Source of the DNA: Heptranchias perlo
Taxonomy: Eukaryota
Assembly: GCF_035084215.1 (NCBI RefSeq)
Contig: NC_090343.1
Span: 15,314,001-15,378,000, forward strand
Length of the DNA stretch: 64,000 bases
Reading direction: 5' to 3'
Notes under the pieces: generated by a model
The model's input: the letters and a program-made list of their open reading frames with translations, nothing else
What the model was told of the DNA's origin: nothing
The model's database searches: none
Made by a program: the position numbers and the translations under genes
Part shown: piece after piece, positions 4,101 to 42,550 of the stretch
Numbering within the stretch: the first letter of the stretch is position 1
How the letters are laid out: every line of letters begins with the position of its first letter

Positions 4101-7100
4101 GGGGGCAGAAACTGACTTAGAACATAATGTAAATCCCTAAAGGGGATGTTCAGGAATGAATGAGAAATTATTTCAATAAAATGCTGGAAGTATTCTACAT
4201 TTGTACCAATGTGATAGTTACTTCAAGATTTAAGGTCCAAAACTGCTCATTTAAATTCCATATAGCCATTAGAGAACTAGTTAGAGGTTTGCAGATAGTG
4301 CAAACAGCCTGTTTTCCTGTTGCCAGAGGAAGTGGTTAACCAATTTCATAGAAATCAAATTGAAGACATGTCATCTCTTCGGTATTTACATTATTTGCAA
4401 ATTAAAATAAACACAGAACTTTTCTGGGTGTCAGTGTGGCTTTCTGTTTAGATAACTGGGTGAAACATGCTGATCCAATCGCCTGGACCAGTTTATGGAA
4501 ATAAGTTTAAAACTTTAATGCTATGCATTTTTTGACCACAGGGTGTCATCATATCTGTGCTGCAAACTTCAATGCATGCTGTTTGGGGAATGAGTGACCC
4601 AGTATTTGTATATGCTGTGCAACTTCTCTACAGTGAACTGGATTTAAGAAACTCTATAATGAATTAATTCCAATGTACCAATTCTCTTGTCATTTAACGA
4701 GATGGACTAACGCCGAAAATCAATTCCAAGCCATTTAAGATGGCCTTTTTTACTCTTTCTCCCTCAACTCTATTTTTAAATTATTTGCTCATCTCTATTT
4801 GTTTGGATCTCCTTTTACTAAGTACCACTATATAATTGAACAGGAAACCTGCTCCCAGGCCTTGATCCACCCAGGAGTGGGAAGCAATAATACAGCTGTT
4901 TTCAATTCTCTCACTGCTGTGGCAGCACTTGGCCTCCATCTGCTACTTCCTGTAATAACTGAGATCAGGGACAAACTATGTCAGCAACTATGGGTATGAA
5001 TTCATCACCTGCCACTCCTTGGCACAGTAAGTTGAAGCATCAATCTATTGTTACTTTGCCACCACCTTCCCCCATGTATAGTAAACCCTTTGTGCCATTC
5101 TCCATATAGAGTTACATAGAATCTACAGCACAGAAACAGGCCAGTTTGGTCTATGCCAGTGTTTATGCAGCACACGAGCCTCCACCCACCCTTCATGTGC
5201 TTATCTAGCTTCCACTTAAATGCACCTATGCCATAAGGAACAGTAAATGTGTTTCCCTCCAGTTATAAAATGTTTAATCACTGTTTCGATGCTGACGGAA
5301 ACTCTTGATTATCTTTTGCTTAAACCATGCTTTCTACTGTATCCAAATTGAACTATAATCTAGAGGATCAGTTTTTTACTTGTGATGTATGCAGTTATCT
5401 CTAGGCAGGCACACCGCTTAGAGAAGCAAAGGATATGGTCAGGAAATGGTTGAGAACTGCAAGCTTTTTTTCTTTAAATTTTACATTATCTGTTAATTTC
5501 AGGATTACACTTTGCTACACTGATCAAGCTGTCAGTATTTGCTGATTGCCAACCCAGTGCGCAGCAATTTATAAAGCAGCTGCCAACTGTAAATCCTTGA
5601 CTAGTATTGTAGACCATGTAATATACTGGCTGGTACATAGCCATGTACAAAAAATACTTTGCAGTCTTTTGTTGCCACGTTCCTTAAGAGGGTGCATTCA
5701 CCCCTGTGCAAAACAGTTTGGATTCACACTGACCCTACTGCAGTTACAAGGCATATGCAGCCTGTATCCAACATTAAAGACAGACCTGTCACTGGAATGT
5801 AGTTGAGTGAGACACTCTGGAGAAGGAAACCTCAGATTGCTTCATTTTGGAGTCCATTTGGACCTTGACACCCAATTTACACTCCCAAATTTAGCATTGG
5901 TGCAGAGTAATTTTGCACCAATGCTAAACCTGTGAAGTGTGAATGCACCCAAGTCCAATGTCAAGGCACCTCTACTGTACATCACTTGGGATCTGCTGAT
6001 GTTAATGAACTATTAAATCTGTGATATCCCGGTTTAAGACTTCATTCTTCTCTCTCATCCGTCACTAGTAGCACATGAGACAACCCATTTCTTCCACTGC
6101 TTTACATCCAGCAGATCGTGCTCTTGGTTTTTCCATAACAGAACCCTTTTTATGTGGCCAGGACGCTGGCCTCACTTACAAGAGGACCGGCTAGATGCAA
6201 TTGGAGTGGGGGGGTGGTCTCCATTCCACTCCACAGCCAGAACTGCTACCTGCTGGATGCCAGCCCAGTATTCAGAGGCCAAAGCACTGATGGTCTCACC
6301 AGAGTTACGATAGGGGGAAGGCACTCTGCTCCCATCGAACACAAGACCTCCCTGGATGTCAACCCAGTATTCAGAGACCGTAATTCTGATCTCCGTTTGC
6401 CAGCGCTATCTGGAGAGAGGGCTCGAGCCCATAACCATATATATCATATTTTCTTGTCTCAGAAAGCGAACATTATTTTTCCTGGTAATTTGTATTTTTG
6501 ATGTTAGATAGCTATTGTTTTGTGTCCCTGTGCTGTAACATAACTATTAGCCTTAGTAACAAATGTTCAACTCACAAACAAAACCAACTCACCCCAACAC
6601 AATACTTGCAAGTTATGGAAACCAAGGAAGAAGAGTCTTTACAAAATAATGGGAAAATTACATAGGCATGGACCCCCTCACTGTAGTTGGTTACATGCAG
6701 AGCTGCATATACTGATCTTAATCCAAGTTAGAACTCTCAGCATGGTTTTGTTCATCCCTAATCACTGTTCTATAGTAATATACATATTTATAACTCAGTA
6801 GTTGCAAAGCAACAACTAATATATTTTTAAAATAAAAGGTGTATGTATATAAGTGTGTGTAATCCTAATAATTTCCTACAAAATGTAGAATCTTTGTCTG
6901 CTAAGTAGCTGTATATTGTCTTGAAATAACATCATGTTTAAACAGCTTTTCTGTAAACTAGGGTCGCAACGTTATGTGACAATGAGAGTCTCTGAAGCTC
7001 ATCAGCTGAAAGATGGAAGCCACCAGACAGCACTGGAGCCAGAATTTGGGAAGACGATAAAGGACATGCCGAGGTAATGTGCAAGGCAGAATTATAATCG

Positions 7101-16100: not shown

Positions 16101-19100
16101 ACCCAACACCAATTTGAACCATTAAAGATGGCATAGATTTGAAAGTGAAGCCCCAATTAAATGAATATCCATGATTTATGGGGTAGAACTTAATTTGAAG
16201 AGTGAGGTGTAATTCCATGCTACTGAGTAATTTAGCTGCTTCATTATCATTTACTCACTATTGTTTGACTAAGAAATATATGTTCCTTTCTGAGTATAAA
16301 GAATATAAAATTATTTGAATGAATTTTAGCAATTAAGTTTCTCAAGAGTTCCAGAGTATCATTTGCTACAATGACACATAATTGTCAAAAACTGAGAGCA
16401 ATTGGTGATCACTTGCTGAATCTAAAGGTAGACGGATTTATAATTCCTTTTTATTCCTCTTCCCAATTCCAGGCTACCTTGTAGTCCCAGCAGGTGGAGG
16501 CGGCACTTTCCTTGGTGGATTTATAGTGAATAAATTAAAACTCCGTTGTGCTGGAATCATCAAGTTTTGTCTGATTTGTACAATCTTGAGTCTGTTAGCT
16601 ATTTTCATAGTCTGCATTCACTGCCCCAACATGCCTGTGGCTGGGATCACTTCTACTTTCAATGGCAGGTATGAGCACAAATCTAATTTTCATCTTTAAA
16701 TTTTCATATATACATTTTAATCATTCTGGAACTGTAATATATTAGGCATATTATAATTGCTACAAGAAGTTAACTAGTTTAACCAATGATCAATAAGATT
16801 AGTTAGTATAACAACCAAAAAAAACAAAATCAAGATTTCAAAATGTAGAGGACCCACAAATGTTCAATTCTTTTATTTTGGACTCAGCTAAAATAGTGGA
16901 ATCTGCACATTTTCTCTTTTACTTCTGACAAAATATCCATCAGAATTTCCTCAGTACAAATACAAAAAACTAATTTTCAATTTTGGTAAAACTCGTTCAA
17001 ACATTTTCTTACAATTGACTTATGTCCTCTGGTGCATCTTATTTCTCATTCATTCTGAATGATTTGTCATTATCTGTTTAATTTTCAAAAGAGATAAGCT
17101 TTGCAGTAATTGGGGTGAAGTAACAGGAGCTGGCAATTTTTTTTGGGGGGGGAAGGTGGATATGGTGGAGGGAGAATCTTTTTTGTCTTGTGTTTTTAGA
17201 TTTATTATTTACTGGATAATTGTGATTTTTGTAGAAAACATTCTGATTATTATTGATTGTAATGTCAACAGCACGTTGTACCCTGCTTAAAAATATAGGA
17301 ATACGGTGAAACCTTTTTTAAAGATTGAATGTGGAAGATGCATAAATAAGTTAGTTGTTTGATTTCCAGCTTTTAATATTTTAGTGATGCAGTAAAGTAG
17401 GAACTGTGCTAATTGACACTGAGGCGTTGTTATTCCACAGTTTTTATGATGGTACAATTAACTTGACTGCAGCTTGCAACGCCGAGTGTAAATGTTTAAT
17501 GGATATGTATAATCCAGTTTGCGGAGCCGATGGTTTAATGTACTACTCCCCCTGTCACGCTGGATGCACAGAATTCAACACAACACTGTCTGCAAATGGC
17601 AGAAAGGTAATTCTTCCAATTATACTTTGTGTTTCCATTAGCCACTAGCCTTACAAGGGGCTGGAAATGCTTTTAAGCTGCATACATGTGTGATTTATTA
17701 ACCTTTAAGCTTAGAGAACGAATGCTCTTCTCAACTAACCCTTTAAAAAATAAATAAATAAAATAATAATCAGTTACTTGGTATATATTTAACTTAAATT
17801 CTTTATTTTTCTCGCTGTCTGTTTAATAAAAGAAGAGCCTGTGCTGTAGATGTTATTGGGGGCTTGGTATAGTTGACAAACCCAATTTGTCATTTTAGTT
17901 AATTATACATGCATGCTGACTCAATATGCACCCAAGCTGCTTTCCCCCTAATTATTTTCACCGAGACTCCTGCACACACAGATATTAGGAGGCGAGTTAC
18001 TGTAGTATTTTTCTTCTGGAACCCAAGTACAAATCCTGTCAAGGTTGATGGAATGAAAGTCACCCCTCTTTGACAGTTTTAAGGGTACAACCTTAAAATT
18101 AGAGCTAGGCCGTTAAGGGTGATGTCAGGAAGCACTTCTTCACACAGAGTAGTGGAAATCTTGAACTCTATCCCCCAAAATGCTGTTGAAGCTAGATCAA
18201 TTGAAAACTTCAAAACTAAGATCGATAGATTTTTGATAAGTAAGAATATTAAGGCATATGGAACCAAGGCGGGTAAATGGAAGATACAGATCAGCCATGA
18301 TCTAGTTGAATGGAGGAACAGGCTCGAGTGACTGACTGGCCTACTCCTGTTCCTATGAGTAGTTTCTATTCAATTCCTAGCAGACATAGTTTGCTGCACA
18401 GATTGGTTGCCTCCATCAGAGAAACTGACAGAAAAATTGAGGCTACTGCTTATGGCCTAGACAGCTGAAGGCATGGCCGCCAATGGTGGAGCGATTAAAA
18501 TCGGGGATGCGCATGAGGCAAGAATTGGAGGAGTGCAGAGATCCCAGAGGGTTGTAGGTCTGGAGGAGGTTACAGAGATAGGGAGGGGCGAGGCCATGGA
18601 GGGATTTGAAAACAAGGATGAGAATTTTTTTAATTGAGGCGTTCCCAGACCGGGAGCCAGTGTAGGTTAGCAAGCACAGTGGTGATGGGTGAACGGGACC
18701 TGGCACAAGTTAGGATATGGGCAGCAGAGATTTGGATGAGCTCAAGTTTATGAAGAGGTCATAACCAGGGGTCATTGGTTTCTAAATCCAAGCACCAATC
18801 CCTGAGACAATTAAGTACTCCCCCCGCCCCACACCCCTCCAACTTAACAAGTACCTGCTGTTTGAATTCTTTCAGCTAGTTTCTTATCCGATTCCAGGAT
18901 TTACCTTGAATTCGTATTGCTTTTAATTTCAGTAGCAGCCGTTCATTTGAAGGCTTTCTGAAAATCTCTGTATACCAGGTCTTGTGGGATGACACTCGGG
19001 TCAGTCAGGATCTTTCCTGTTTCTGAAGCTGTACTAAATGCATTTTAATAACTATATAGCTGCAGTCTTTTAATGCTTGTGTTTATGGAAAAAGCATGAT

Positions 19101-42387: not shown

Positions 42388-42550
42388 GCAGTGTCAGCTT
42401 GGCTCAGTGGGTAGCACCCTTACCTCTGAGTCAGACAGTTGTGACTTCAATACCGACTCCAGGACTTGAGCACAGGCTGATACTTTGATCCAATAATGAG
42501 CAAATACTGCAGTGCTGTCCTTAAACCAAGACCCTGTTCAAGTCAATATT
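42388..42550 (+). mobile_element. tRNA-derived SINE head (SacSINE1/Deu-like)
   Basis: A box tggctcagtggg; cctctgagtcaga; decayed B box gacttcaatacc; ccaggacttgagcac. Confidence 0.7.

Follow-up and report, generated by a model that had tools for sequence, protein, structure and literature searches.

The segment at 6046-6436 of the window (the whole 64,000-nucleotide stretch of Heptranchias perlo DNA that was analysed) is, judged from its sequence, almost certainly a decayed member of a tRNA-headed SINE family that is dispersed in the genome and has tandem units of ~101 nt. The copy is antisense to the OATP/SLCO gene that hosts it and its sense strand is the minus strand. The family, its anatomy, its target-site duplications (TSDs) and a pile-up of copy starts at both unit starts were observed. 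The reading favoured here, with a probability of roughly 0.55, is that in this SINE, likely RTE-mobilised, the unit would set the RNA's 5' terminus at its own first base by site-specific cleavage. A 5' end that is nucleotide-sharp inside the SINE body, and at both tandem units, is the oddity of the family; the window segment by itself is an ordinary dead SINE copy.

The window segment and its SINE family

The segment is intronic, as the preliminary description had stated, with Pfam OATP matches of an OATP/SLCO gene on the plus strand at 1024-1188 and 16409-16696 on either side of it. Exons of the transporter were placed at 1024-1188, 6962-7073, 16409-16696 and 17388-17645 (+) from OATP and Kazal_2 matches, the exon at 6962-7073 showing AG/GT borders and no Pfam match. 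Read on the minus strand, the element consists of a 73-nt tRNA-like head, one or two units of ~101 nt, an RTE 5'-UTR-like piece, an RTE-like tail and GAA repeats, and the family consensus lengths are 327 and 443 nt. The window copy is a two-unit member in which the 5' part of the head is lost or decayed, with 79% identity to the family consensus and a non-CpG divergence of ~10%, which is also the figure for the family. Of the tRNA-like Pol III head, a piece from its 3' part (consensus 48-73) is left at 6410-6436, with one base of the B box altered, and a possible additional decayed head (consensus ~36-47), uncertain in its assignment, lies behind a 14-nt AT-rich insert at 6437-6463. Unit 1, with a predicted three-way junction and G/C hairpin, occupies 6307-6407, and its closing helix is broken in this copy; unit 2, a tandem near-copy of unit 1 that is also decayed here, occupies 6198-6306. 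Headless copies in the family begin at the first base of unit 1, and unit 2 is their second start site. The RTE 5'-UTR-like segment follows at 6124-6197, as judged by eye against RTE-2_DPl/HaSE1 in the supplement of PMC5786205, and the 3' tail at 6046-6123 resembles the last codons of an RTE ORF and ends in GAA-type repeats. Candidate TSDs at 6036-6049 (tail side) and 6464-6477 (head side) are weak, being identical at 9 of 14 positions in a by-eye count. The copy has neither an intact head nor an intact B box, the closing-helix probability in its predicted fold is below 0.2 and it is predicted to be inactive. The head-side junction (6389-6599) was spanned by one contig in each of two sequencing runs of other organisms, at 34 differences, which makes an old insertion common to these organisms likely. 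Hundreds of family contigs were found in each of three other organisms. Family-like contigs also occur in runs presumed to be RNA, where the contigs show neither strand nor ends.

The preliminary description had interpreted 6150-6435 as two covarying modules of a plus-strand ribozyme, aptamer or retrozyme-like RNA flanked by a 7-bp TSD. The letters and coordinates of the modules were accurate, and the 28-nt block common to both has exactly two occurrences in the window, one at 6253-6280 and the other 99 nt further on at 6352-6379, beyond a chance expectation of 0. The stems and the two ccataac repeats (6133 and 6429) that it listed can also be read in the window, and the idea of a mobile element that derives from RNA and contains a structured unit in two copies was right. 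The element actually extends over 6046-6436, its promoter head and its tail point to the minus rather than the plus strand as sense, and the modules represent, in circularly permuted form, the true unit, whose repeat phase begins at 6407 and 6306 on the minus strand. Among 17 aligned two-unit copies, four of the five helices tested were complete only in the window copy, namely the module-1 closing helix that had been called compensatory (1 of 15 ungapped copies), the 5' stem ggccag-gacg-ctggcc (1 of 16), the long-range pairing cgctggc/gccagcg (1 of 15) and the module-1 hairpin (1 of 4). The module-2 closing helix does stand in the family consensus and was complete in 4 of 18 other copies; it is a by-product of the unit's own hairpin, appearing because each unit has a GAGAC...GTCTC hairpin and the unit is doubled. 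The internal hairpins, described as unrelated, occupy the same position of the two units and are nearly identical in consensus, hence homologous. The gggctcgagccc palindrome, proposed as an RNA stem, is the Pol III B box with one base altered. Both copies of ccataac are family sequence inside the element, one in the tail and one in the head, and therefore do not constitute a TSD.

With the helices private to the window copy, the hairpins homologous and ccataac internal, the claim of covariation between modules fails, and what had been read as covariation is post-insertion decay in one copy. The fold z of the segment was -1.23 on the plus strand and -0.77 on the minus strand, no better than shuffles, and in a query-biased set of 110 distinct copies one unit motif was present in 74, two in 25 and none in 11. 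No hammerhead core was found on either strand, and TSDs and tail show target-primed insertion, so the element is not a retrozyme. The plus-strand two-module reading is already refuted as stated and has next to no probability left; as far as sequence can show, the segment belongs to a dispersed retroposon without covariation, an outcome that the preliminary description had itself named as contrary to its proposal. Its ribozyme idea loses the plus-strand evidence and stays alive on the opposite strand through the sharp 5' ends at unit starts.

A search of the same genome gave 40 scored places out of 398 candidates on many contigs, with an identity of 69-81% for the other copies. A 24-mer query produced 64 exact matches over many contigs (control, 0) and was exact in 1 of 46 independently found units, so the family probably numbers in the low thousands, as a rough figure. 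The family head has a B box at consensus 56 and an A-box-like motif that is visible in the alignment and has no match to the strict pattern, and its similarity to the genome's tRNA-Cys reached a z of about 5 (4.9-5.2). Up to consensus position 73-74 the head is shared with an abundant SINE, presumably of the SacSINE1/Deu-SINE type, whose body and tail differ; a decayed copy of that SINE lies at 42398-42470 (+). A 5S rRNA-derived (SINE3) domain was ruled out (z -0.6 to 0.7 against the genome's 5S).

The family ends were sharp in the alignment. In 36 loci that were hand-picked for TSD candidates, two of which look spurious, the TSDs had a mean length of 12 bp and began with A in 30, and upstream of the TSD a T was present at -12 in 29 and at -11 in 21. 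These TSDs match the RTE insertion signature as given in PMC6007223, a T stretch ~10 nt upstream of the TSD and a first TSD base tied to the 3' repeat. The SINE was likely mobilised by an RTE-clade LINE. The likeness of the body piece to an RTE 5'-UTR is by eye only and is clearer in a sister family. The tail scored 28-30 against the genome's RTE ends (shuffle maxima 30-33) and translates like the last codons of an RTE ORF, with similar translations in 2 of 11 DUF6451 loci, not above shuffles. None of these 11 loci or of several RTE-like families carries the tail of the SINE, none of 30 tail matches was seen extending into recognisable LINE-like upstream sequence, and the one endonuclease match among 32 ORFs downstream of units belonged to a separate LINE 500 nt away (L147). 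The genome's old RTE-like LINEs with DUF6451 belong to at least three families, all fragmented (L067-L077). The core motif gave 0 matches in metagenome and viral contigs.

The closest known systems are the tRNA-headed bipartite RTE SINEs HaSE1, CoeSINE4, SINE2_Gav and the Ceph-SINEs (PMC5786205), which share with this family the tRNA head, body, RTE 5'-UTR-like piece and RTE 3' tail with microsatellite, as well as the RTE insertion signature of PMC6007223. Head and tail exchange between families is described for them in PMC5786205 and is likewise seen here. The present family differs in its body, a single or doubled ~101-nt unit that a motif search did not find in the supplement of PMC5786205, and in the many copies that begin at the unit. 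Among papers screened by title or the start of the abstract, none named this family or described a SINE whose copies start in this way; the family may already be named in Repbase, Dfam or SINEBase.

Copy starts at the first base of the unit

In a set that was picked by the 24-mer alone and treated as unbiased, hand classification showed that 24 of 56 family matches started at the first base of a unit. Under strict extension, 16 of the 39 truncated copies in this set started within 5 positions at the unit start (p 5e-11 against an even spread). The 24 unit-start copies comprised 9 of the unit-1 type, 5 with two units and 10 of the unit-2 type, although two of the five two-unit copies probably go back to a single insertion that was duplicated. 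A unit start was also the beginning of 15 of 64 copies in a tail-anchored set. Surviving TSDs reach into the unit by its first one to three bases and end there, and the leading A of the unit was present in 9 of 12 TSD-defined cases; the RNA 5' end is thus most likely that A, one base ahead of the closing helix, which has 6 bp and a G-U as its first pair. The start offset was identical behind two upstream contexts, the head and the hairpin of unit 1.

Headless copies of the unit-1, unit-2 and two-unit types were found with both long and short tails, and their divergence was the same as that of headed copies (0.09-0.12). The class counts are compatible with a single cut probability of ~0.4 (chi-square p 0.19-0.36 on small weighted counts), which is agreement and not proof. 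A long tail was present in ~13 of 16 headless copies compared to about half of the headed ones. A second, broader pile-up comprised 7-8 of the 64 tail-anchored copies, which started at consensus 287-299, just ahead of the RTE 5'-UTR-like motif, some with clear TSDs (L034, L039, L046, L047, L051, L064 and L217), so the family has other truncation hot spots. Unusual copies included two headless ones in inverted orientation, separated by 870 nt and sharing their 5' flank (L105/L106), a copy with three 68-nt partial units in tandem (L147:1470-1670) and one with an inverted duplicate of the unit core (L156:1476-1550).

A sister family was available as control, in which the head and unit core occur twice, ahead of an RTE 5'-UTR of the Ceph/BovB type and a tail unlike that of the main family. 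A total of 830 candidates were found in the genome, and the loci L087, L089, L094, L095, L104 and L227-L256 were dimers with one trimer (L238). Of 30 copies, 13 were full length, 3 started at the second head and 1 at a unit start, and this proportion of unit starts (1/30) differed from the 24/56 of the main family with a Fisher p of 5e-5. The sister units depart from those of the main family at a junction base, by changes within a loop or in their closing helix. The sister family has a similar core yet only this one unit start, so the core alone is insufficient for the effect, and its having the same head with no pile-up speaks against the head as the cause of a stop or cut.

Proposed cleavage at the unit start and its alternatives

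In the proposed mechanism, Pol III would transcribe the element from its tRNA-like head, and the unit would fold as a three-way junction, which would be cut one base before the closing helix, either through self-cleavage or by an RNase P-type enzyme. Of the two products, that on the 3' side would keep the tail, be reverse-transcribed and insert as a headless copy, while template jumps at the cut 5' end would join the doubled unit and the head. Cleavage is favoured by a unit without an intact B box, by the same offset in two contexts and by headless variants that are as old as the headed ones. Against it stand the weak fold z of the unit, no true covariation, no known ribozyme core, the sister family without a pile-up, the lean of headless copies towards long tails and the second hot spot. 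As to the agent, self-cleavage is a tentative proposal from sequence, and a host nuclease such as RNase P would take up the rest of the probability given to cleavage. It was argued in PMC5786205 that a 5' ribozyme is excluded from SINEs, as it would cut off the head; the head loss so predicted for a ribozyme-bearing SINE is the pattern seen in this family.

The same starts could also come from separate headless source elements, either a bipartite non-autonomous RTE or an older SINE headed by a degenerate tRNA-like unit, with transcription starting at the first base of the unit and no cut. This origin is possible but doubtful. It would suit the sister family without a pile-up and the position of the head-unit and unit-unit junctions, which fall at the first base of the unit, where template jumps at the 5' end of an RNA would place them, and bipartite RTE elements usually retain the LINE 5' end according to PMC5786205. 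The mitochondrial model of ARAGORN called unit 2 and the majority one-unit consensus as a D-armless tRNA from the second base of the unit (0-2 calls in 300 shuffles), but made no call on the CpG-restored unit 1 or on either sister-family unit. Neither an intact B box nor an A-box match was found in the unit. Many parallel headless masters of equal age would moreover be required, and a per-column comparison of the tail region showed no headless-specific diagnostic bases among 20 headless copies.

A reverse-transcriptase stop or a second-strand priming hot spot on intact headed RNA is unlikely, even though a stable helix ends 1-4 nt upstream of either start site, the junctions show 1-3 nt of microhomology and a second hot spot exists at consensus 287-299. 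The same head helix precedes the sister-family units without a pile-up, and the same G/C hairpin, where it ends terminal units, yields 1 start in 64. The offset also tracks the downstream unit and not the upstream helix. RNase Z processing is an improbable cause, as it would leave two extra bases and would not explain unit 2.

Fold of the unit and known RNA classes

The predicted fold of all four master units was a three-way junction, loosely tRNA-shaped, of closing helix, variable-top hairpin and T-arm-like hairpin, and the predicted closing-helix probability was at least 0.94 in both masters of the main family. The fold z of the unit was -1.0 to -1.3. The sole apparent double change in the closing helix, C-G to U-A, is CpG decay, so there is no true covariation in the unit. 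Comparison with six tRNA sequences gave a z of 3.8 for unit 2 against tRNA-Thr and of 2.3 or less for the other units.

The preliminary description had found no match to known ribozymes, and this was borne out. Rfam gave no match over the window element at E up to 10, nor in 10 other family copies, and tests for the hammerhead, hairpin, pistol and twister-sister motifs were negative. The HDV-like nested double pseudoknot was found neither in the window copy nor in the one-unit master, and loose matches in two other masters lay away from the unit fold. For twister and its T-variant, taken from the table in PMC8501958, the L4 loop, the two pseudoknots and the G opening the 3' L1 strand were absent from the masters.

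To get out of host transcripts, RTE elements probably require processing of their 5' ends, for which HDV-like and twister ribozymes are the known means. A T-variant twister ribozyme is reported in PMC8501958 beside the TSD where Perere-3, a Schistosoma element of the RTE clade, has its 5' end. Like that variant, the unit starts at an A adjoining the TSD and continues with a closing helix and a GC dinucleotide, then with one hairpin that varies and another whose loop has 9 nt. No match was obtained for the sequence of the loop, for either pseudoknot or for the G with which the 3' L1 strand opens. HDV-like ribozymes are described at the 5' ends of RTE, R2 and L1Tc (PMC6765202, PMC3185411), including promoterless RTEs (PMC6765202). 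The unit shares with these a discrete 5' end before a helix opened by G-U and the need for nothing specific upstream, but has no P2/P3/L3/P1.1 arrangement from the unit start and starts one base before the G. The unit is neither HDV-like nor twister; if cleavage is true, it would be a ribozyme of a new class or belong to a retroposon that RNase P processes.

As predicted, the unit resembles tRNA-like RNase P substrates of the mascRNA/menRNA type in its ~61 nt, in an acceptor-like helix stacked on a T-arm-like hairpin and in a shrunken D arm. It differs from them in its 6-bp acceptor, its non-canonical T loop and its start at -1, and had no such match in Rfam. In the boldest version of the cleavage reading, which is rather improbable, the ~100-nt unit would be a self-cleaving ribozyme of an undescribed class, with its origin in an RTE LINE's 5' end and its activity retained in a vertebrate SINE. 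It would have cut the promoter off ~40% of transcripts and left a genomic fossil map of the site, and the sister family would have escaped by its changes in junction and loop bases.

Other features were recorded in the window and beyond. Read depth over the head and the first ~20 nt of the unit was ~40-60 times that over the rest of the unit in two other organisms (L003:1524-1547; runs X8 and X9), and not in run X5; a related element with high head depth may have expanded in those two organisms. A 70-nt imperfect inverted repeat at 5875-5944 of the window, also present in contigs of other organisms, is probably a small DNA-transposon relic. Finally, tandem tRNA-Cys arrays (~2.35-kb spacing) and a 5S rRNA array (~3.1-kb spacing) were found on C23 and at C5:113.67-114.17 Mb.
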